DNA of 64,000 nt from IMG/VR virus record IMGVR_UViG_3300017747_002313; one strand, written 5' to 3'. Below the pieces are notes generated by a model. The model made no database searches and was not told where the DNA came from. It saw nothing but the letters and a program-made list of their open reading frames with translations. The position numbers and the translations under genes were made by a program. The stretch is from an uncultured virus (IMG/VR IMGVR_UViG_3300017747_002313) (Duplodnaviria; Heunggongvirae; Uroviricota; Caudoviricetes; Crassvirales). Shown one piece after another: positions 1 through 63,673 of this stretch (its first letter is position 1; every line of letters starts with the position of its first letter).

Positions 1-207
1 AAACAGTTAACCCCAGTTGAATGGCTAGTAAAAGAATTTAGTGATATTCTTGGACCTATGGTGGTAAATAATATGCAAGATGTATTGTTTGAGGATGCTA
101 TAGTAAGAGCCAAAGAAATGGAGAAAAATTATTATATTTGCAGCAAATGTAAATCTAAATTAGATGAGAAAGATATGCAGCAAATGCAAAATAAAGAAAG
201 CAATTGA
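1..207 (+). CDS. 5'-truncated small phage protein (KQxTPVEWL...AKEMEK type)
   Basis: Frame 1 reads KQLTPVEWLVKEF...AKEMEKNYYICSKCKSK...ESN*; starts before the window. Confidence 0.5.
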   Translation, partial: KQLTPVEWLVKEFSDILGPMVVNNMQDVLFEDAIVRAKEMEKNYYICSKCKSKLDEKDMQQMQNKESN

Positions 208-859
208 TGAGTTTTCAGCAGATAAAAATACTAAATCTGGAGTAAGATCTCAATGTAAAAAATGTATAAATGAGAGATATATTTTAAATAAAGAAAAAGT
301 ATTACTAAAGCAAAAAGAAAACTATAATCCATTAAAGAAAAAAGAATATTACTTAAAAAATATTAATGAACACAATAAAAGGAGTAAAGAATACTATGAA
401 GAAAAAAAAGATAAAATTCTTTTAAGAAAAAAAATAACCTATAATAAAGATGCTAAGAAAGAATATTACTTAAAACACAAAGACAGAATAAACAAATTAG
501 CATCAAAAAGAATTTCTATTAAAAGACATACTGACAGTATTTTTAAATTAAAACATAATATATCTTGTTTAATTAGAAATAGTATAAAGAAAAAAGGATA
601 TACCAAATCTAAAAAAACAGAAGAAATAATAGGATGCACTATACATGAATTAATAATGCATCTGTCTAATATGTTTTTAGATGGAATGTCATTTGAAAAT
701 CATGGTGAATGGCATATTGACCATATTATTCCTTTAGTAAAAGCAAAAACAGAAGATGAAGTAATTAAATTAAACCACTACACTAATCTACAACCATTAT
801 GGGCAAAAGATAATTTAAGTAAAAGTGGTAAGTACAACGAAACCTTTAAATCAGAATAG
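164..859 (+). CDS. HNH homing-type endonuclease with N-terminal Zn finger
   Basis: CSKC...CKKC Zn finger, Lys-rich linker, C-terminal WHIDHIIP...NHYTNLQPLWAKDNLSK HNH motif. Confidence 0.85.
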   Translation: MRKICSKCKIKKAIDEFSADKNTKSGVRSQCKKCINERYILNKEKVLLKQKENYNPLKKKEYYLKNINEHNKRSKEYYEEKKDKILLRKKITYNKDAKKEYYLKHKDRINKLASKRISIKRHTDSIFKLKHNISCLIRNSIKKKGYTKSKKTEEIIGCTIHELIMHLSNMFLDGMSFENHGEWHIDHIIPLVKAKTEDEVIKLNHYTNLQPLWAKDNLSKSGKYNETFKSE

Positions 860-860
860 A

Positions 861-1088
861 ATGGAAAAAGAAAAAACAAAAGATTTAGCATATTACAGAG
901 AAAATGCTGAAGAAGATTACATGACAACACCTATAAGTGTTCTTAGGTATATTACAGAACTTGAATTAAAAGCACTTAAAATTCGTGAAATATTAAATCG
1001 GATATGTGAAGTTGAAGAGAATGTCTTTTTAAGGATGGATATTGAACAACTAATCAAAGAAGCAACACCATATGAAAACAATAATTAA
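861..1088 (+). CDS. hypothetical phage protein
   Basis: ATG at 861 directly follows the junction motif; ORF-track start 825 is less likely. Confidence 0.6.
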   Translation: MEKEKTKDLAYYRENAEEDYMTTPISVLRYITELELKALKIREILNRICEVEENVFLRMDIEQLIKEATPYENNN

Positions 1089-1124
1089 GAACAAGAAATC
1101 AATAAACCTTTAAAAACAAGTAAA

Positions 1125-1295
1125 ATGGAAGAAAAAACATACACCATTTCAGAAAATCAATTGAATCTTTTAATTGAAAAAATTAAATGTAAAATTAAAG
1201 AACCCTTACGGAAAGAAGGTAAAAGTTCAAAAGGTGCAGACATTTCACACTCAATTGAGTCCACTATTAAAAACCATATTAACTACTTTAAATAA
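1125..1295 (+). CDS. small hypothetical protein (56 aa, MEEKTYTISENQ...NYFK)
   Basis: Not in the ORF track; ATG follows the junction motif and the stop lies in the next motif copy. Confidence 0.6.
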   Translation: MEEKTYTISENQLNLLIEKIKCKIKEPLRKEGKSSKGADISHSIESTIKNHINYFK

Positions 1296-1302
1296 GAATA
1301 AG

Positions 1303-1506
1303 ATGGAACAAAATATTGAAAGATGCTACGAGTCTAGCGAAAAACAAGTGTGTTGCTACCCTGATTGTAACGAAAAAGCAGAATTTCACCTTCAAGAACT
1401 TGGAATGGGTACTACATACGAAGACTATACCGAATTATGCTCAAAGCATTTAGATGAAATGATACCCTTTGGTTCATCATTTGAAGTATGGAGACTAGAC
1501 AATTAA
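1303..1506 (+). CDS. small Cys-rich (Zn-binding) hypothetical protein
   Basis: MEQNIERC...CCYPDC...LCSKH; start after the junction motif. Confidence 0.6.
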   Translation: MEQNIERCYESSEKQVCCYPDCNEKAEFHLQELGMGTTYEDYTELCSKHLDEMIPFGSSFEVWRLDN

Positions 1507-1524
1507 CCTTTAAATCAGAATAGG

Positions 1525-1746
1525 ATGGCAAAAGTAACAATTGAATTCGACAGCATTGAAGACAAAGAAGAAATGGAGATGTGTCTTAACGGCATGAAGT
1601 GGTATTTATTAGCTTGGGAATTAGACCAATATTTGCGTAATAAATTAAAACATGAGGACCTATCTGACGATGTGTATAAAGAGCTGGATGATACAAGAGA
1701 AAAGCTACACGAATTCATGCAATATAATGGATTGACGTTTGATTGA
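1525..1746 (+). CDS. hypothetical phage protein
   Basis: ORF track; preceded by the junction motif. Confidence 0.7.
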   Translation: MAKVTIEFDSIEDKEEMEMCLNGMKWYLLAWELDQYLRNKLKHEDLSDDVYKELDDTREKLHEFMQYNGLTFD

Positions 1747-1750
1747 TTGC

Positions 1751-1826
1751 GTATAACGGATTAGTGCTACACGATGGTAGCATATTAAACACAGTACTTG
1801 CTACTATCTTGTAGCACTTGTTATAT
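1751..1826. mobile_element. attC-like hairpin recombination site 1
   Basis: GTATAAC-GGATT-arm 1763-1782 / arm 1799-1818 (18/20 complementary)-T-GTTATAT. Confidence 0.8.
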
Positions 1827-1889
1827 GTAGTAGCGACCTTTTAAGATAAAATTAATTAGAAGTAAAAATGGAAAAAGAAATAAAAAGCG

Positions 1890-2294
1890 ATGGAAAAACA
1901 AAAAATTTATTTAGCTGGCGGTTTTAAATCAGATTGGGCTAACGAAGTAAAAAAATGCTCTAACAACTTTCAATGGATAAATCCAAAAGAAAAAGAGTTT
2001 AAGAACGGAGAAAGAATAACAATGAATGTAAACGAATATGGAAAATGGGATTTACATTTTATAAAACAATGTGATATTCTTTTTGTGTATGTAGAAAAAA
2101 CAAACACAAGTTGCATTGGATTATGTTGTGAAGCTGGTTATGCAAAGGGATTAGGAAAGACTGTTATAACAGTTTTAGAGCCAAATCACGAAACAATTAA
2201 AGATAATTACTTATCATTTATCACGCAAGTTTCTGATATTGTTTTTGAAACAATTGATGAAGGTGTACAATATTTAAAATCTTTTGGAATATGA
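1890..2294 (+). CDS. nucleoside 2-deoxyribosyltransferase-like protein (cassette 1 cargo)
   Basis: KIYLAGG...D..FIKQCD...G...EAGYAKGLGK, NDT-family pattern with conserved Glu. Confidence 0.75.
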   Translation: MEKQKIYLAGGFKSDWANEVKKCSNNFQWINPKEKEFKNGERITMNVNEYGKWDLHFIKQCDILFVYVEKTNTSCIGLCCEAGYAKGLGKTVITVLEPNHETIKDNYLSFITQVSDIVFETIDEGVQYLKSFGI

Positions 2295-3034
2295 TTGATA
2301 AAAAAACAATAGCTGTTTGGTTCAGTTGCGGAGTTGCTTCTGCGATTGCTGTTCAAAAAACAATTGAAAAATATGGTAAAACTCATAATATTTTAGTTGT
2401 GAATAACCCAGTAAAAGAAGAGCATGAAGATAACATTAGATTTAAAAATGATATTGCAAAATGGCTTGGTATTGAAATTATTGAAGCTAAATCAAAAGAG
2501 TATCCAAGTGCCAGTATTATTGATGTTTTTGAGAAGCGAAAATATATTAGCGGTGTTGCTGGTGCTCCTTGTACAAAATATCTAAAAAAACAAGCAAGAT
2601 ATGAGTTTGAAATAGAGCACAAAATTGACTTTCACGTTCTTGGTTTTACATTAGAAGAAAAAAATAGATTTGAACGATTCACTAAATTTGAGAGAGAAAA
2701 CACAATTGGAATTTTAATTGATGAAAAACTAACTAAATTTGATTGTTTTGATATTTTACATAGAGCAGGAATTGAAAGACCTAAAATTTATGATTTAGGA
2801 TTTCCAAATGCTAATTGTATTGGTTGTGTTAAAAGTCAATCGCCTACTTATTGGAATTTAGTTCGTGAGAAATTCCCAGAAGTATTTGAACAAAGAGCGG
2901 AACAAAGCAGAAGAATTGGTGCAAGATTAGTAAAATATAAAGGAAAACGAATTTTTTTAGATGAGCTTGAACCAACAGCAAAGGGCGGTAAAATTAAAAC
3001 TTGGGAATGTGGTATTTTTTGTGATACAGAATAA
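2291..3034 (+). CDS. PAPS-reductase-like / adenine nucleotide alpha hydrolase (PP-loop) protein (cassette 1 cargo)
   Basis: VWFSCGVASA PP-loop variant, APCTKYLKK, LGFPNANCIGCVK, terminal CGIFC. Confidence 0.75.
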   Translation: MIDKKTIAVWFSCGVASAIAVQKTIEKYGKTHNILVVNNPVKEEHEDNIRFKNDIAKWLGIEIIEAKSKEYPSASIIDVFEKRKYISGVAGAPCTKYLKKQARYEFEIEHKIDFHVLGFTLEEKNRFERFTKFERENTIGILIDEKLTKFDCFDILHRAGIERPKIYDLGFPNANCIGCVKSQSPTYWNLVREKFPEVFEQRAEQSRRIGARLVKYKGKRIFLDELEPTAKGGKIKTWECGIFCDTE

Positions 3035-3101
3035 GTGCGATGGCTTTTTATTTCTTTTTCCTTAGATAAATGTTAAAAGGATTGAGAATATAAGCTATTA
3101 C

Positions 3102-3179
3102 ATATAACGTTTTGCAACTATACGCAGATGGCATAAGCATAATGTACGTGTCGCCATTTGTGTATAATTGCTGTTAGTA
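3102..3179. mobile_element. attC-like hairpin recombination site 2
   Basis: ATATAAC-GTTTT-arm 3114-3132 / arm 3153-3171 (16/19)-T-GTTAGTA. Confidence 0.8.
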
Positions 3180-3207
3180 GGCGTTTATTTACTTTAAGTT
3201 TAAAATT

Positions 3208-3429
3208 ATGGAATTAATAAATATAAATATTGCAAATGTAGTTTTCAATTGTCCTTATTGTAATAAACAATATGATGATTGTGAAGATAACTATGTAGAT
3301 AGGTGTAATAAAAATAAATCAAAATATACAAGTGTTAAGTGTACTTGTGGTAATAAGTTTTATATGACTTATAATTTTAAAGGCGATGCAGTTTCGTTCA
3401 AAAGGGAATCTACTTCAAATGCCTACTAA
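3208..3429 (+). CDS. small Zn-ribbon protein (cassette 2 cargo)
   Basis: CPYC...CTCG; stop codon TAA lies inside the terminal TAAC core. Confidence 0.7.
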   Translation: MELININIANVVFNCPYCNKQYDDCEDNYVDRCNKNKSKYTSVKCTCGNKFYMTYNFKGDAVSFKRESTSNAY

Positions 3430-3469
3430 CTAGCATATAAGCGCAATTGCGCCTTACATAACTAAAAAA
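3427..3469. mobile_element. array-terminal (attI-like) site A
   Basis: TAACTAG-N6-AGCGCAATTGCG-N5-CATAACTAAAAA, near-repeat of 4974-5018. Confidence 0.6.
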
Positions 3470-3477
3470 TAAATAAA

Positions 3478-3735
3478 ATGAAAAAGTTTAAATTAATTAT
3501 AAAGACAAGTATTGTTGCTTACGCAATAGTAGCTTTTATGTTTTATGGTTGTGAAAATCAACAAAAAACTTATAACAAGCAACCAACTATTTATTCAAAT
3601 GAACAAACGGCAGATATAAAAATTTACATTATTGATAGTTGTGAATACATTGGAAAACTAAGAGGATATAAAACTGATGTTTTAACACATAAAGGTAACT
3701 GTAAATTTTGTGTAGAACGTAATACAACCAAGTAG
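3478..3735 (+). CDS. putative lipoprotein
   Basis: Basic N-terminus, hydrophobic stretch, lipobox-like FYGC. Confidence 0.55.
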   Translation: MKKFKLIIKTSIVAYAIVAFMFYGCENQQKTYNKQPTIYSNEQTADIKIYIIDSCEYIGKLRGYKTDVLTHKGNCKFCVERNTTK

Positions 3736-3791
3736 GCAGCGAGTGCTGGGGTGTCACCCAGCAGAGGTAATACCTTTTGAGTTGCCTACTT
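3730..3791. other. three-way-junction secondary structure (candidate ncRNA or terminator)
   Basis: AAGTAGGCAGC/GTTGCCTACTT outer stem enclosing TGCTGGG/CCCAGCA and GAGGT/ACCTT hairpins. Confidence 0.5.
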
Positions 3792-3806
3792 TATAACTAA
3801 AAATAT

Positions 3807-4019
3807 ATGATACACAAAGAAAAAGCGAAAGAACTGTACGACAAGTACTTTGACTTAGTCGAAGCACAGACATCAGAACAGCAGGAAGATAATGCACGTA
3901 AGGCGGCATCGATTACCTGCGATGAAGTACTTAATGCACTAGAAGAAAACCGTTGGCAGAATAGGTTGATGATGGATTACTGGGAGGAAGTTAAAAAAGA
4001 AATAAACACTTACACATAA
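3807..4019 (+). CDS. hypothetical phage protein (KEKAKEL...YWEEVKKEI type)
   Basis: ORF track; stop TAA inside the TAAC core of hairpin site 3. Confidence 0.7.
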   Translation: MIHKEKAKELYDKYFDLVEAQTSEQQEDNARKAASITCDEVLNALEENRWQNRLMMDYWEEVKKEINTYT

Positions 4020-4114
4020 CGTTTGGCGGCTTTGTGTCTGTTTGCCCCCTTGCACAAAGTTTCAATTTTATCACAAATGTTGATGGGGCAAATAGCACAA
4101 AACCGCTGTTATAA
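4014..4114. mobile_element. attC-like hairpin recombination site 3
   Basis: ACATAAC-GTTTG-arm 4026-4048 / arm 4085-4106 (one bulged base)-T-GTTATAA. Confidence 0.8.
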
Positions 4115-4182
4115 GCTGGCTGCGGTTGATTACCGAAAAACTTAAATCGAAGCACTAAACAAAAGAATTAAAAAAAATAGGG

Positions 4183-4962
4183 ATGGAAATAAATAAAATA
4201 TACAACGAAAATTGCCTTGATACAATGGCTAAAATGCCTGATAAGTTTGTGGACTTGGTAGTTACTTCACCGCCTTATAATATGCGAACAAGAATAAGGA
4301 ACGGACAATATACCACAAGAGAGAAAAGCGAACATTTTAGCAAGAAGTATAAGCATTTTGACGATGCCTTACCTATAAATGATTTTTACGAATTTCATAG
4401 CAGCGTATTGACCGAACTATTAAGAGTGTCAAAAATTGTTTGCTATAACTTTCAAATAGTAACAGGAAGCAAGGAAGCGTTTTTTAAAATCATTGGCGAT
4501 TTTAATAAGGACATTAAGGATATTATCATTTGGGATAAAGGAAGCGGACAGCCTGCAATGCACGGAATGGTTTTAAATAGCTGCTATGAAATGGTGTTGA
4601 TATTAGAAGATGATAAAAGAGCAGGAAGGGCAATACAAAACGCTAAATTCAAAAGAGGTGAAATGAATAACATTTTGAGAATTGGCAGAGGCAAAAAAGT
4701 ATCTGATGTTCACGGTGCAATTTTTCCTGAACAACTACCATTTGATTTGATAAACGCTTTTTCAGAAAAAGAAGCATTGATTTACGACCCTTTTATGGGA
4801 AGCGGAACGACTGGATTAGTAGCAAGTAAATTAGGTAGAAAATATATTGGAAGTGAAATAACAGAAGAATATTGTAAAATAGCTGAAACTCGTATTAAAG
4901 AGTGCGGTGGGCTTTTTTTTAATTCTTTTGAAACGGAATTGTCAAACGAAGCAGGAACGTAG
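4183..4962 (+). CDS. DNA N4-cytosine/N6-adenine methyltransferase, beta class (cassette 3 cargo)
   Basis: DLVVTSPPY catalytic motif; H.AIFP; DPFMGSGTT SAM-binding motif. Confidence 0.92.
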   Translation: MEINKIYNENCLDTMAKMPDKFVDLVVTSPPYNMRTRIRNGQYTTREKSEHFSKKYKHFDDALPINDFYEFHSSVLTELLRVSKIVCYNFQIVTGSKEAFFKIIGDFNKDIKDIIIWDKGSGQPAMHGMVLNSCYEMVLILEDDKRAGRAIQNAKFKRGEMNNILRIGRGKKVSDVHGAIFPEQLPFDLINAFSEKEALIYDPFMGSGTTGLVASKLGRKYIGSEITEEYCKIAETRIKECGGLFFNSFETELSNEAGT

Positions 4963-4973
4963 CAGCTTGCTTA

Positions 4974-5018
4974 TAACTAGACGCTAGGCGCAATAGTTGC
5001 GTAAAGCATAACTAAAAA
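4974..5018. mobile_element. array-terminal (attI-like) site B
   Basis: TAACTAG-N6-GGCGCAATAGTTGCG-N5-CATAACTAAAAA. Confidence 0.6.
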
Positions 5019-5100
5019 GTGTAATATTATGCACTATTAAACGGAATTCATCCGATTAAATGTTTAACTAAAGTGCAGTATGTTGCACAATTGAAGAGAA

Positions 5101-5484
5101 ATGAGACAATTAGTTTACAACGCAGTAAGATGCCATGAGTGTGAAGAGACGATAGTCAGCTACAGTAGGCACGACTATAAGACGTGCGGTTGCCCGAACG
5201 AGGCAATTGTTGATGGTGGACTGGACTACGCTAGGTATGGCGCGAAGACCTTGAAAAAGATCACATCGATCAACATCTACGCAGACGATGACTTTGAGTT
5301 AGTCAGAAAGCATGCCTTTAGAGGTAGCAGAGGTGTGAGTGGTGTAGAGCCAATGAAGTACGTACCAATATGCGATATGGACGACGACTACCTACAGAAG
5401 GTTTTGGAGTATGGTGGTGCAGATTGGCACATAAAATTAATTAAAAAGGAGATAGAATGTCGGAAAGAAAAAAAGAATTCTTAG
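5101..5484 (+). CDS. conserved phage Zn-binding protein
   Basis: NAVRCHEC...SRHDYKTCGC...VDGGLDY motif. Confidence 0.7.
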   Translation: MRQLVYNAVRCHECEETIVSYSRHDYKTCGCPNEAIVDGGLDYARYGAKTLKKITSINIYADDDFELVRKHAFRGSRGVSGVEPMKYVPICDMDDDYLQKVLEYGGADWHIKLIKKEIECRKEKKNS

Positions 5485-5723
5485 TTGACCTGATCAACAA
5501 GATGTTTGAGATCGCAGGTCACGATGTTAAGTACGAGGATATTGTGGATAGGAAGGACGCATGGTACAGCAAGTGGACTATGACTAGTGAACAGAATGAA
5601 GAATGGGTTAAGTATGGAGAGGCACTTATAAAGAAGGTGTTCAGGTACCCAAAGAAGATATGCCACAGAGAAATGATGTGGTTAAATATGATGTACGGAC
5701 TTAAAATAAAAAATGATGAGTGA
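5457..5723 (+). CDS. hypothetical phage protein
   Basis: ORF track, overlapping gene chain. Confidence 0.6.
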   Translation: MSERKKEFLVDLINKMFEIAGHDVKYEDIVDRKDAWYSKWTMTSEQNEEWVKYGEALIKKVFRYPKKICHREMMWLNMMYGLKIKNDE

Positions 5724-5928
5724 GGAGTATATGGCAGTTAAGATCTTCAACGAGATATGGATGGAGGTCGGCCACAGAGAAAAGTCTAAGAGACTAGCTA
5801 TTATGCACGCAGACAGAATGATCGAGATGGCGTTCTTCAGTCGTGGTTATGGTATAATACCTATCTACTACACAAAGAGGTACTGGATAGATGTAAGAAA
5901 GTACATATGCAATTTATCAAATACTTAG
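5713..5928 (+). CDS. hypothetical phage protein
   Basis: ORF track, overlapping gene chain. Confidence 0.55.
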   Translation: MMSEEYMAVKIFNEIWMEVGHREKSKRLAIMHADRMIEMAFFSRGYGIIPIYYTKRYWIDVRKYICNLSNT

Positions 5929-6104
5929 TCGTATGGATATCACAAAACCTATCTGTTCCATTCTGGATGGTAGGTCATGTGCATCTATCTGTAAATGTGT
6001 ATGAGGATATACACGAGATAATTGCATCATTAGGGATGAATTTAATTGTATTTATTGGATTTTTAATTAGTTATAATGAAAGAGATAATCAACGAAAATC
6101 ATGA
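5907..6104 (+). CDS. small membrane protein
   Basis: Two hydrophobic segments. Confidence 0.55.
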   Translation: MQFIKYLVVWISQNLSVPFWMVGHVHLSVNVYEDIHEIIASLGMNLIVFIGFLISYNERDNQRKS

Positions 6105-56762: not shown

Positions 56763-56931
56763 CGTCACCCTTCTTAATGTGCTCGTCAACTAATGAGCTG
56801 ACCTCAACTACATCAGCCTCCTGATATCTCTGCTTCACAGTCTCTGAGCCAGTTAACAACAACCCACTCGCAGTCTGCTTCTGCTCTATCTCCCTAGGCT
56901 TAACTACAATAAAACTATTTAACGCTTTCAT
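56668..56931 (-). CDS. groES: co-chaperonin GroES
   Basis: IVVKP.....TASGLLL...V..V......KKGD...Y...D.. Confidence 0.85.
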   Translation of the reverse strand: MKALNSFIVVKPREIEQKQTASGLLLTGSETVKQRYQEADVVEVSSLVDEHIKKGDVIAYDAVQGHDYRSGDQTYRIIQYRDVALIL

Positions 56932-58513
56932 TCTCTCTTACATTTGTGATTATCGCATTCGTACTAAGGATCGTAGTAGCAACAGATACAGCGTTCTTAA
57001 GTGCGTTCTTCGTCACCTTCGCTGGATCTATAATACCCATCTTCACCATATCGCCTGTCTTCTTCTCCTTCACATTATACCCAACACCTACACTACCATC
57101 GTCAAAGAACTTCTCGTAGTCAAGAACCTCGTTGCCATCAACACCTGCGTTCTCACAGATCTTATGGAACGGCTGCTCACATGCCTGTGACATAATATCC
57201 AACGCAACAGACGGAGCTCCATTCAACATCGCCTTAGATGCTACAAACGCAACTGCGTTCACTAGCCCTACGCCTCCACCTGGCAGTACACCATCCTCAA
57301 TCGCTGCCTTCACCGCAAGCACTGCATCGTCAACACGGTCCCTCAACTCCTTCTGCTCGATATCTGAACTCGCTCCGACGTAGATCATTCCTACACCTCC
57401 TGAGATTGACGCAATACGCTCGTCCATGAACTTGATCTCTTCCTCAGAAGTAATCTCCCACTTACTAAGCTTAAGCTCCTTCACATACGCCTCTAGATCT
57501 TCATCAGTGCCGTCAGGTCTTACGATAACAGTGCTGTCCTGACCTACGATGATCTTCTTCGCTCGACCCAATCCTGAAACTGTACACAACGCTAAGTTGT
57601 CACCAGTAGACTCTGAGTAGTAGTGAGCACCAAGAGATCGTGATATATCAGTCATCATCTCGTCCTTACGATACCCGAAGTTTGGTGGAATAATGTTACA
57701 CACCTTGATTTTGCCCTGAACAACGTTCATGTTAAGTGTAGCTGCAACCTGAGCTGACAACTGACCTACAATAAGCAATGGCTTTCCTTCCTTCAGCACA
57801 TGAGCCAGTACGTTCTCGATGTTCGATAGATTATTAATCTCATGATCTGTAAGTAACACATACGCATCCTCCATCACGCACTCCATCTTCTTGTGATCGT
57901 TCACGTAGTACTTAGATGTCCACCCTCTAGCTACACGTATACCCTTAATAACCTCAGAGTATGTCTTCGTTGTCTTAGAGTTCTCTACAATAACATGACT
58001 AACCTGCGAGTACACATCAGCGATCAACTTACCTACAACTGGATCGTTGTTTGCAGAGATCGTCGCTACATCAAGCAGCCTCTTACCACTCACCTTCTTA
58101 GACATACGCCCAAGCTCCTTCACTACATCGTCTGCAATAGACTGTATCTGTCTCAATACCTCAGTCTTGCTGTGCTTCTCTACATCAAAGTAGTCCTCGA
58201 ACGCATCGATAATAGCCTTGGTAAGCACAATACTAGTCGTAGTGCCATCACCTGCCGACGACGCTGTCTTCGATGCTGCCTCCCTTACCAGCTGAACAGC
58301 TAAGTTCTCCACTGGATCGTACAAATTGATTGATCGTGCGACGGTCACACCGTCCTTCGTAACGGTAACACCTCCTATGTGGTGCTCGGACTCTATTAAG
58401 ACCGTCTGCCCTGATGGGCCTAAAGTGGATGAAACTGCTGCTGATATCTTGTCGATGCCGTTTTTCAGTTTCTTACGTCCATTTTCATCTAAAAATATCT
58501 GTTTTACTACCAT
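56915..58513 (-). CDS. groEL: chaperonin GroEL
   Basis: TLGP.G, TKDGVTVA, AGDGTTT, ATISANND, RVDDA..A..AA...G..PGGG, GIIDP.KV. Confidence 0.95.
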   Translation of the reverse strand: MVVKQIFLDENGRKKLKNGIDKISAAVSSTLGPSGQTVLIESEHHIGGVTVTKDGVTVARSINLYDPVENLAVQLVREAASKTASSAGDGTTTSIVLTKAIIDAFEDYFDVEKHSKTEVLRQIQSIADDVVKELGRMSKKVSGKRLLDVATISANNDPVVGKLIADVYSQVSHVIVENSKTTKTYSEVIKGIRVARGWTSKYYVNDHKKMECVMEDAYVLLTDHEINNLSNIENVLAHVLKEGKPLLIVGQLSAQVAATLNMNVVQGKIKVCNIIPPNFGYRKDEMMTDISRSLGAHYYSESTGDNLALCTVSGLGRAKKIIVGQDSTVIVRPDGTDEDLEAYVKELKLSKWEITSEEEIKFMDERIASISGGVGMIYVGASSDIEQKELRDRVDDAVLAVKAAIEDGVLPGGGVGLVNAVAFVASKAMLNGAPSVALDIMSQACEQPFHKICENAGVDGNEVLDYEKFFDDGSVGVGYNVKEKKTGDMVKMGIIDPAKVTKNALKNAVSVATTILSTNAIITNVRENESVK

Positions 58514-61025: not shown

Positions 61026-61053
61026 ATTTAACATAATGTAAATTATAGGACAA
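61026..61053 (-). other. dif-like XerCD site
   Basis: Minus strand TTGTCCTATAA-TTTACA-TTATGTTAAAT: 11-6-11 layout, right arm identical to the canonical XerD arm. Confidence 0.8.
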
Positions 61054-61318
61054 GCATACCTAACACCATGCAAGACGATCAATAGATCAACCAATCGGCA
61101 TGCAGTCCGTTCGTTCGGTGATCATAGGCGCATATCATTAGACGTTGAATAACATCCCTAACCAACCAAACTATTGAAAATCTAGCAAAATCCGACGTAA
61201 TATCCGCGTAACTATCTGAAGATCAGTAGATAGATATGTATAAAAGCAAATTGTAACGTGTATTTTTATTTAGAATGAGTATAAATAAGCTATAAAATGA
61301 AAAATAGTTATGCGAAAG

Positions 61319-61354: not shown

Positions 61355-61672
61355 AACAAGATGAGGGAACGACCTCAGATAAAGCTTAAGAGTAATTAAA
61401 AGGGGGTGACAAAGCCAACCACTGAACAAAGCTTAACAACACACATACGATCTTTGAAATAACGAAATCAGCAACAGTTTACTTCTTATCTAATAGAGCG
61501 CAAGTGATCGAACGGTAACAGAGGGATGAGTTGATTAGGACAATGGGCACAGCACCTAGTCGGGGTGTTGAGAATGCTGAAATAATAGACGGATCGCGGA
61601 CAGTTGTCGCGGCGATCACACACGGTGCAGTCAGAATGACTGATTAATGGTAGCGATAACCACTGCACCACT
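61355..61672 (+). ncRNA. candidate structured early leader RNA with boxA-like motif and 3' tRNA-like minihelix
   Basis: Non-coding, several hairpins; GATCTTTGAAA; GGTGCAG...TGGT-AGCGATA-ACCA-CTGCACC-A. Confidence 0.45.
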
Positions 61673-61693
61673 AACCAAATAAAAACAAACACC

Positions 61694-61816
61694 ATGAGAA
61701 CAGTAGAAAGATTAATTGAAGTAGCTTTCATTAGCTTATTTGTAGCGGCATTTATTTTTGTCGCAGTTATGGCCTGCACAGGGCATGTATATGCGAGCCA
61801 TACGGGATTAGGATAG
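61694..61816 (+). CDS. tiny membrane protein (40 aa)
   Basis: Leader motif before ATG; hydrophobic core. Confidence 0.55.
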   Translation: MRTVERLIEVAFISLFVAAFIFVAVMACTGHVYASHTGLG

Positions 61817-61838
61817 TAGATTAATAAACCAAATTACC

Positions 61839-62024
61839 ATGAAAAGATATAGAATTGAACAGACGTTTGCACCAAGTGATGAATTAGATTACGTAGGTCA
61901 AAAAAGATACGTTATAGTTGATAATTTAGATAACTGCATTTTCAGTTGTGAACACATTAGCTATAGAGAAGCAAGTAGAGAATTAAAGGATTTAAACGAA
62001 GACAACCTAAAATTCGAACAGTAA
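61839..62024 (+). CDS. small early protein
   Basis: ORF track plus leader motif. Confidence 0.65.
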   Translation: MKRYRIEQTFAPSDELDYVGQKRYVIVDNLDNCIFSCEHISYREASRELKDLNEDNLKFEQ

Positions 62025-62047
62025 AGTAATCATATAAAACAATTACC

Positions 62048-62203
62048 ATGAAATTCAATTTAATAATTCTAAGCAAAATCAATAGCGATTATTACAGTAT
62101 GCAGGCTTTAGATAGAGAAGGTAACATTGTATATAAAGCTACAATACCAAGTGTAGATGCATGTAAGGTAATAATGAAATATAAGAACGTCAAGATTGTA
62201 TAA
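62048..62203 (+). CDS. small early protein (51 aa)
   Basis: Leader motif AAAACAATTACCATG. Confidence 0.6.
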   Translation: MKFNLIILSKINSDYYSMQALDREGNIVYKATIPSVDACKVIMKYKNVKIV

Positions 62204-62244
62204 TTCTTGACTGGCTAAAATTTAAACCAAATAAACCAAACACC

Positions 62245-62349
62245 ATGAGCAAGATCATTAAAATAGAGGGAGCATATGAGATCATAGGCTTTTTCGTAGA
62301 GGGACAATTGATTAGAACAACTAAAAGAAGAGTAACTAATTGGAAATAA
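62245..62349 (+). CDS. small early protein (34 aa)
   Basis: Leader motif AAACCAAACACCATG. Confidence 0.55.
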   Translation: MSKIIKIEGAYEIIGFFVEGQLIRTTKRRVTNWK

Positions 62350-62374
62350 TATTAACATTTAAAAACTAGAAATC

Positions 62375-62539
62375 ATGAAAATCGAAAAAATAATTCAAGA
62401 GTATAAGTTTATTAAGTTAGTTAAAACAGAAATGATAATGGGGGGAAATTATGCCGTAATTAATGGCGATAGAGCAAAAACAGGTCTAACATTAGATGCG
62501 GCTTATGATCTATTTAAATTATTAAAAAAACTAGGTTAA
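62375..62539 (+). CDS. small early protein (54 aa)
   Basis: A-rich leader; stop codon is part of hammerhead stem I. Confidence 0.6.
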   Translation: MKIEKIIQEYKFIKLVKTEMIMGGNYAVINGDRAKTGLTLDAAYDLFKLLKKLG

Positions 62540-62612
62540 CTGACGAGTCTTAGATAGACGAAAGCAATTAAATGAACGGATGTTCAGCCATGCGAATGGT
62601 TTGCTATTAACC
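62534..62612 (+). ncRNA. type I hammerhead ribozyme
   Basis: GGTTAA-CTGACGA-GTCT(TAGAT)AGAC-GAA-AGCAA...TTGCT-A-TTAACC; all core bases and three stems present. Confidence 0.9.
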
Positions 62613-62628
62613 AAATAAAACAATTACC

Positions 62629-62799
62629 ATGAATAAATTAATCGGATTACTTATGGCTAATGGTATTAGCTATAAGAAGTTACCAAATAACCAATTCCAG
62701 GTAACAAGAGACGTTGTAAGTTATGATCTTAGAAATGATTTACACAAAATAGGATTTAACATCCATTTGTTAGACGTTACTGCAATTATTCACAAGTAA
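62629..62799 (+). CDS. small early protein (56 aa)
   Basis: Leader motif directly after the ribozyme cleavage site. Confidence 0.6.
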   Translation: MNKLIGLLMANGISYKKLPNNQFQVTRDVVSYDLRNDLHKIGFNIHLLDVTAIIHK

Positions 62800-62810
62800 A
62801 ACCAATCACC

Positions 62811-62924
62811 ATGCAAGCAAACGAATTTCACGATCTCAATGATCGCATGACTATTTTACGCATGAAAGCATTGCGTATCACATTGGCAGACGGAATGTGT
62901 ACATATCTGTTAGCATTTAATTAA
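62811..62924 (+). CDS. small early protein (37 aa)
   Basis: Leader motif AAAACCAATCACCATG. Confidence 0.5.
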   Translation: MQANEFHDLNDRMTILRMKALRITLADGMCTYLLAFN

Positions 62925-62947
62925 TAACCAAATAAAAAATAGAAACC

Positions 62948-63160
62948 ATGAGAAAGAATTTTAATTTAAACGACGAAGAATTCATCATCTGTATGAGTTA
63001 CATTCTTCAACAAAAGAATAACTACATCTCTGAGTTAGAGATAGCATTAAAAAACAACAGCAATGAATGCTTGACTGAATACTATCAGAGAGAGATAGAC
63101 AAAATCAACGATTTCGAAGATAGGTTATCATTGAAATTCAACATTAAAATTAACCAGTAA
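62948..63160 (+). CDS. small early protein
   Basis: ORF track plus leader motif. Confidence 0.65.
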   Translation: MRKNFNLNDEEFIICMSYILQQKNNYISELEIALKNNSNECLTEYYQREIDKINDFEDRLSLKFNIKINQ

Positions 63161-63171
63161 AACAAATCACC

Positions 63172-63336
63172 ATGCAAGAAATAATTAATCAAGCAATCAA
63201 CGATATGTTTGTCGGGGTTGCGCAGGATAATGGATTGTCAACGGGGGACATCAGTCCCCTTGATGATATGATCATTGATGATATAAAGGAACAGTTGCAA
63301 GAGGTATTGCAACGATTTGTAGAACAAAACAGATAG
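63172..63336 (+). CDS. small early protein (54 aa)
   Basis: Leader motif AAAACAAATCACCATG. Confidence 0.6.
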   Translation: MQEIINQAINDMFVGVAQDNGLSTGDISPLDDMIIDDIKEQLQEVLQRFVEQNR

Positions 63337-63338
63337 CC

Positions 63339-63557
63339 ATGTACGGAAGAGTAACAGATCAGAAGCTTAAAAGCTACGGAAAGATAGTAGAGTATTGGCC
63401 TAACAAGTTGAATAGGTACATGCGTCACGTTAGATTCCAAGGCAGCGAGAAGACGTACACCATGAGCAAGGACGCGATCCAGGATTTAAATGACTTGGAG
63501 ATGATCGAGCAATGGGAGTCTATAGATAGACAGATGTTAAACCAAATAAACAAGTAA
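63339..63557 (+). CDS. small early protein
   Basis: ORF track. Confidence 0.6.
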   Translation: MYGRVTDQKLKSYGKIVEYWPNKLNRYMRHVRFQGSEKTYTMSKDAIQDLNDLEMIEQWESIDRQMLNQINK

Positions 63558-63559
63558 CC

Positions 63560-63673
63560 ATGAAAGCAAAAACATTTTTACCCTTGTTCACAGGGTTCTA
63601 CGGATCAATATGGGATGACGTAGATTTTTACGGAGAGGACGAAATCAGCCAGTATAGTATTAACGAAAATTAG
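63560..63673 (+). CDS. short ORF (37 aa, MKAKTFLPLFTGFYGSIW...), possibly truncated
   Basis: Leader motif before ATG. Confidence 0.4.
   Translation: MKAKTFLPLFTGFYGSIWDDVDFYGEDEISQYSINEN

Follow-up and report, generated by a model that had tools for sequence, protein, structure and literature searches.

Two short gene arrays lie near the left end of the window (the whole stretch of 64,000 nt analysed here) and end in the same sequence, which raises the question of where their genes are inserted and by which enzyme. A search of all six frames of the window gave no recombinase. The window apparently covers the larger part of a phage genome, with capsid-, portal- and terminase-like open reading frames named by eye, and is possibly less than the whole phage genome. 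The closest annotated matches for the array region are Flavobacterium phages, and the AT content is higher in 1-5000 than in the genes after it. The host phylum read from the relatives would be Bacteroidota, the host of the window itself being a candidate only. The nearest relative record (G001) starts at window position 6066, leaving the array region outside it. An Rfam search of positions 1-6000 returned no match; this region contains three hairpins and no integrase. A promoter scan found nothing.

Two arrays and their shared end sites

The arrays and their flanks comprise the following features.

1525-1746, plus: 73-aa gene flanking array 1 on the left, no Pfam match
1746-1757, plus: left arm of site 1, ending in AAC; putative R-box half of attI, displaced by the array
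1754-1823, plus: hairpin 1, attC-like, TAAC..GTTA, z -5.3; goes with the downstream cassette
1820-3108, plus: cassette body 1a, ends complementary over 10 nt, two genes
1890-2294, plus: first gene of body 1a, nucleoside 2-deoxyribosyltransferase-like, PF15891
2291-3034, plus: second gene of body 1a, 247 aa, no Pfam match
3105-3176, plus: hairpin 2, weak fold, z -1.05
3173-3430, plus: cassette body 1b, ends complementary over 10 nt, with gene 3208-3429
3208-3429, plus: gene in body 1b, 73 aa, no Pfam match
3427-3452, minus: putative attI-type site 1, GTT core 3430-3428, from alignment with five chromosomal sites
3430-3436, 3437-3447 and 3441-3452, minus: 7-nt spacer, L arm and short palindrome of site 1
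3453-3469, plus: tail of site 1, lineage-specific, with CATAACTAAAAA
3807-4019, plus: 70-aa gene flanking array 2 on the left, with its stop codon formed by TAA in the TAAC core
4009-4020, plus: left arm of site 2, without upstream partner
4017-4111, plus: hairpin 3, z -3.4
4108-4977, plus: cassette body 2, ends complementary over 9 nt, with gene 4183-4962
4183-4962, plus: gene in body 2, N6/N4 DNA methyltransferase, PF01555
4974-5001, minus: putative attI-type site 2, GTT core 4977-4975
4977-4983, 4984-4993 and up to 5001, minus: 7-nt spacer, L arm and short inverted repeat of site 2
5002-5018, plus: tail of site 2

The original prediction rested on a motif shared by both array ends, and this motif is present at 3427-3469 and 4974-5018. 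A pattern drawn post hoc from both copies matches twice in the window and never in 100 shuffles. Neither end site folds better than its shuffles (z -0.83 for site 1 and -0.72 for site 2), in agreement with their description as non-hairpin sequences, and each includes a short GCGCAA/TTGCG palindrome. The complementarity of cassette ends extends to 10, 10 and 9 nt for the AACs at 3108, 3430 and 4977. The first AAC of each array (1757 and 4020) had been reported without a partner; indeed, the best upstream partners reach only 4 and 6 nt. Every cassette gene of the window points toward its end site.

Deletion of array 1 had been expected to rebuild a dyad of about 11-6-11. This geometry was not recovered, as the arms of rebuilt site 1 agree at 3/11 positions at 6 nt against 8/11, ungapped, at 7 nt, and those of rebuilt site 2 at 2/11 against 6/11. 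The rebuilt empty-site dyad is better read as 11-7-11, with a spacer as in attI1. Nor does TTRCRYATAAC, the sequence common to both first arms, behave as a general left arm: it occurs in 3 of 145 cassette ends and in 2 of 24 unpaired first arms, both belonging to the window's own loci or a homologue. The TTGCG..CATAAC tail, present in 6 of 23 distinct sites, is lineage-specific. A third copy of the site 1 tail motif stands at 3793, away from any array end, and this tail is probably a gene-leader motif or an accessory repeat.

Empty alleles, alternative alleles and the cassette unit

A motif search returned 14 viral loci, of which 12 are real; the two others (L009 and L012) were judged chance matches for their weak partners and higher GC. 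All real loci display variable DNA upstream of TAAC and fixed DNA downstream. Nine of the motif loci come from one phage family, unrelated to the phage of the window. L014 is an exact empty allele without hairpin and with its site intact, and eight filled loci of the same family carry, between the same flanks and with boundaries at TAAC, six different inserts of 296-789 nt. An empty allele that lacks the hairpin and keeps the TAACTAG site, as had been predicted, is thus found in another phage family, whereas the window's own predicted junctions (1757-3431 and 4020-4978) were not recovered: a search for its empty alleles returned only filled relatives plus one unrelated match, and the contigs of four runs included no joint at either place. 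A joint 1744-5035 in X1 was rejected as an empty junction because it is too weak (25 letters on the short side).

Relatives of window loci 1 and 2 (L269 and L271) have the same left arm and the same right site around inserts of 703 and 1137 nt. The left-flank gene of array 1 also stands before other cargo in L005/L269 and L272, as does the left arm of site 2 with different cargo in L010/L271. Site 2 is missing from L005, in which its two flanking genes are adjacent, so that this site was gained or lost as a block. The array of L001 is decayed, its hairpin being missing, and site 2 of this locus holds a 72% homologue of the second half of body 1a. Window positions 1819-3085 are matched by a contig of run X3, and cassette body 2 shares 96.9% identity across 873 nt with a cassette in L126, an integrase-carrying phage. 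Positions 4977-5041 have 83% identity with the site of an unrelated phage family of about 30 kb (L004 group).

A shorter core pattern gave 35 loci, 30 of them judged array ends. After L080, L091, L092, L097 and L103 had been left out as chance matches (weak partners, higher GC), the core is present as 23 distinct sites across unrelated phages. A looser right-half pattern found 50 viral loci with no real sites beyond the known ones, the rest being chance-like.

Comparison of these empty and alternative alleles bears out an attI-like primary target downstream of the genes, and both end sites are very probably attI-type targets of integron-like arrays. As TAAC is duplicated at both insert ends, the sequence places the crossover only within these four letters. 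The proposed AA|C crossover falls within them, its exact position coming from the analogy with IntI1 (PMC2811028).

The polarity of the unit was assessed on 270 hairpin-body units of viral loci, a shared body being one of 88% or more identity in different contexts, which gave 7 pairs. The upstream hairpin is identical in four pairs, 78% alike in one and different in two, and the sequence downstream of the body differs in all seven. Shared bodies thus usually keep their upstream hairpin (5/7) and never their downstream sequence, which upholds the predicted hairpin-then-gene unit. The pairs are not independent, since three of the four identical ones come from the single comparison of L119 with L122, in which three identical cassettes stand in reversed order, each with its own upstream hairpin. 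The methyltransferase cassette of the window is among the two exceptions, as its hairpin is different in L126. Close copies of hairpin 3 stand before other genes in L070, L074 and L110. Relaxing the threshold to 75-88% identity added no pairs. Judged from sequence, hairpin-then-gene is the rule, although hairpins are exchangeable.

Of 145 phage hairpins, 123 have the better fold on the gene-sense strand, against 17 of 44 chromosomal hairpins, and phage hairpins include on average 2.06 G-T pairs on this strand vs 1.04 on the other. The fold bias is found in two of the three window hairpins, hairpin 3 folding slightly better antisense.

Further array forms were observed in related records. One 41-kb record (L066, L076 and L089) includes one host-type site in at least three copies, and an array of its own ends at every copy. 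L065 and L071 carry a third class of array-end site, starting ATCTAAATAAACG, with two copies in L071. In L271 (L010) and L004, the gene of some cassettes is nested within the hairpin loop, the body being only about 25-40 nt.

Chromosomal attI sites and the acting enzyme

P0001 is a tyrosine recombinase of 276 aa located at the end of one array. Its alignment gave 80 viral and 80 cellular loci, i.e., the best 80 of 526 and the best 80 of 557. Among these best 80 viral loci, the layout is cassettes, end site and integrase, all on one strand. The phage integrases have 266-280 aa and lie 45-70 nt after their own array-end site (43 sites), which carries a TAYTATATGTA-type right half about 51 nt upstream of the start codon. 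In these arrays, 80 of 83 cassettes have genes pointing toward the site. In Bacteroidota chromosomes, the integrase is followed by the site, then by cassettes with genes pointing away from it, and chromosomal and phage hairpins are reverse complements of each other. Chromosomal sites, defined solely by end-pairing and hairpin, were obtained at 25 of 78 integrase loci. They lie 46-133 nt after the integrase stop codon, and in 22 of the 25 a TA stands in the L arm at the same register as in attI1, whose sequence was taken from the primers in PMC2811028.

A matrix of the 25 chromosomal sites ranks window site 1 first of 2466 GTT positions and site 2 10th (20 columns) or 31st (14 columns). Site 1 scores above the leave-one-out chromosomal median (8.0), site 2 below it with 4.6 bits. 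On the minus strand, site 1 and the chromosomal site of L222 agree at all but one of the 17 bases ending in GTT; the attI of L222, L256 and L263 have a GCGC arm. The end site of phage L090 is 76% identical to a chromosomal attI over 50 nt, and several chromosomal sites include the same small accessory palindrome. By comparison of the sequences, the two window sites read on the minus strand match the attI adjoining an I2-less integron-like integrase of Bacteroidota chromosomes. NF040815 was passed by four of five of these chromosomal integrases, which score 200-210 with TIGR02249 against a cut-off of 265 and fall below the XerC and XerD cut-offs. Their I2 insertion is missing, with 19 aa between the aligned blocks vs 61 aa in IntI4 (about 42 aa shorter).

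The plain GCGC-type pattern matches in 62 of 401 Flavobacteriales genomes with many control matches, and a whole integrase lies upstream in 2 of 30 chromosomal loci examined for it; therefore, this short pattern has by itself no diagnostic value in chromosomes. A GCGCATAAGTTCTAGTTG motif, probably a conserved coding or RNA sequence, also recurs in Flavobacteriales chromosomes (L313, L314, L318-L320, L333 and L339) with no integrase nearby.

Since no such enzyme is encoded in the window, it would act in trans. A recombinase was found in none of 20 phage records with such sites (19 partial, 11-88% complete, and one complete; a positive control was run), and no integrase remnant was found beside the phage host-type sites. 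The reading preferred here, with moderate confidence, is that each site is an attI-type target on which a host integrase acts in trans. With its L arm, spacer and core, each site would represent the half that stays fixed in a double-stranded attI of the Bacteroidota chromosomal type, mounted in the phage with the genes pointing toward it. A circular cassette made of hairpin and gene would extrude its hairpin on the gene-sense strand, and a tyrosine recombinase would exchange one strand at the AAC core with attI, the gene-sense strand being presumably cut between A and C as in attC (PMC5027507, PMC2811028). Replication would then resolve the junction, and new cassettes would enter beside the site, shifting the old left arm away. 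The enzyme would most likely be a host integrase of the NF040815 type, the cognate site of which corresponds to the phage site. A borrowed enzyme is plausible, as an attI on a plasmid is used in trans by IntI1 (PMC9892861), and the phage probably uses that of its host to swap accessory genes such as the DNA methyltransferase.

Because chromosomal cassette genes have the opposite sense, host cassettes would enter the phage antisense, so that most of the cargo would have to come from other phages, leaving room for a helper-phage enzyme. The sites would still be of attI type, and the smaller integrase (266-280 aa) of a co-infecting phage or prophage would tolerate a non-cognate L arm. The phage integrases adjoin array-end sites of their own with genes oriented as in the window, the two site types agree in three columns (A, T, A) and in the A before GTT, and the near-identity of cassette 2 to a cassette of an integrase-carrying phage favours such a helper. 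This explanation is nevertheless rather unlikely, as a matrix of the 43 phage-integrase sites ranks window site 1 only 36-43 and site 2 790-1132, and the GCGC-type pattern is found near 0 of 80 viral integrase loci vs two chromosomal ones.

Alternatively, the sites could be relics inactive in recombination, either captured attI or worn hairpins, in which case the cargo would now change through exchange among phage arrays, homologous or by microhomology. Decay does occur, as in L001, upstream hairpins are swapped in two of the seven shared bodies, and some GCGC-type sites look like a flipped hairpin without its last GTT. A clean empty allele next to six different inserts with exact TAAC boundaries argues against relics, and the recurrence of the core as 23 distinct sites in unrelated phages suggests selection; this alternative is accordingly improbable. 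As an origin of the sites, a flipped hairpin was ranked below the chromosomal attI match.

The enzyme initially put forward, host XerC/XerD recombining a folded single-stranded cassette with the site as with CTXphi, is very improbable in view of a dyad in the attI1 register with poorly matching arms around a 6-nt centre, a left arm that is not conserved (2/24) and the dedicated integrase adjoining the same site in chromosomes; moreover, the CTXphi arrangement is reversed, the duplex target being there the dif of the chromosome. In its favour, the arms generally resemble tyrosine-recombinase arms, and a sequence that we take to be dif-like lies at about 61027-61054. The latter reads on the minus strand TAA, 6 nt, then TTATGTTAAAT; it is intergenic between divergent gene blocks and may serve the host Xer in dimer resolution or integration. 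A dif-type pattern matches 21 of 61 Flavobacterium genomes, near the control level, and did not yield a host dif. The L-box cut mapped for IntI1 gives a 6-nt overlap (PMC4792948) equal to the 6-nt dyad centre, which may by analogy be the true overlap.

Relation to known systems and significance

As in integrons, both class 1 and sedentary chromosomal, the duplex target has an L arm, a spacer and a GTT core in the attI1 register. AAC/GTT-bounded hairpin sites with a strand bias in folding, complementary cassette ends and more G-T wobbles on one strand (PMC5027507) are other shared traits. Integrons differ in that the window genes point toward attI with no integrase in cis, and cassettes pointing at the promoter had not once been seen according to PMC5027507. 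The candidate enzyme also differs from IntI, being about 42 aa shorter than IntI4 across I2 and below the TIGR02249 cut-off. The system works like an integron platform but falls outside integrons for its lack of intI and I2 and its reversed genes. Atypical integrons of Treponema, as described in the accessible text of PMC3607928, match the chromosomal layout; their genes point away from attI, whereas those of the window phage point toward it, with no integrase.

The nearest published case is the CALIN of the Polaribacter phage P12002L (Qi et al. 2023, PMC9892861), a Bacteroidota phage in which, as in the window, cassette clusters lack an integrase and include DNA methyltransferases. P12002L_attC1 belongs to the same hairpin family as the window's hairpins. 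The published attC2 is the reverse strand of the site ending both arrays of this phage (L342, about 29.2 kb and 37.3 kb) and, from its sequence, looks like an array-end site rather than an attC. This end site is not of the window's host type (score -12.3). The sites of P12002L are treated as IntI substrates in the available portion of PMC9892861, which names no attI for this phage and reports that attC1 did not recombine with IntI1. The present reading offers a possible reason for this failure.

When CTXphi hijacks XerCD, a phage likewise depends on a tyrosine recombinase of its host and on the folding of a single strand, the latter two being conjectural for the window. It differs in that the window phage owns the duplex target, which is attI-like and not a 6-nt dyad, and gains cassettes without integrating itself. 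The available text of PMC8618304, PMC8876359 and PMC8138268 includes no description of such a cassette system. No paper describing attI of the host type in phages came up in the literature search, although most subscription papers were not searchable and a prior description is possible.

Both the target and the candidate enzyme can thus be named specifically for a widespread cassette system undescribed in the searched literature. If the preferred reading is true, phages would gain anti-restriction genes via an integrase borrowed from the host, and folded single strands would be recombined by an enzyme that lacks the I2 insertion, which bears on the origin of integron integrases from Xer-like ancestors, a question raised in PMC4792948. 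More tentatively, many recombinase-less Bacteroidota phages might have captured a host attI and mounted it backwards, the host integrase running a mirror-image cassette pool and orientation acting as a barrier between two pools that share one I2-less, hairpin-handling enzyme. Phage cassettes, with their methyltransferases and other genes, would then be expressed in phage arrays only, and host cassettes, any defence genes included, would land antisense in the phage.

Other features of the window were noted apart from the cassettes. A phage-encoded GroEL-like chaperonin, recognised by eye from its translation, lies at 56915-58513 on the minus strand, and a run of small genes occupies 61600-63560, many with a AACCAAATAAA-like leader in front. 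A hairpin at 3730-3791 (z -4.3) is not of the TAAC type and had no Rfam match; it is conserved in L001, L005 and L095, immediately following an AACYAA motif, and may be a structured RNA or a leader module. The gene at 3478-3735 (region 3463-3729) is missing from L005, and the short AACYAA repeats bounding this indel suggest a module exchange at gene-leader motifs, apart from the cassette system.
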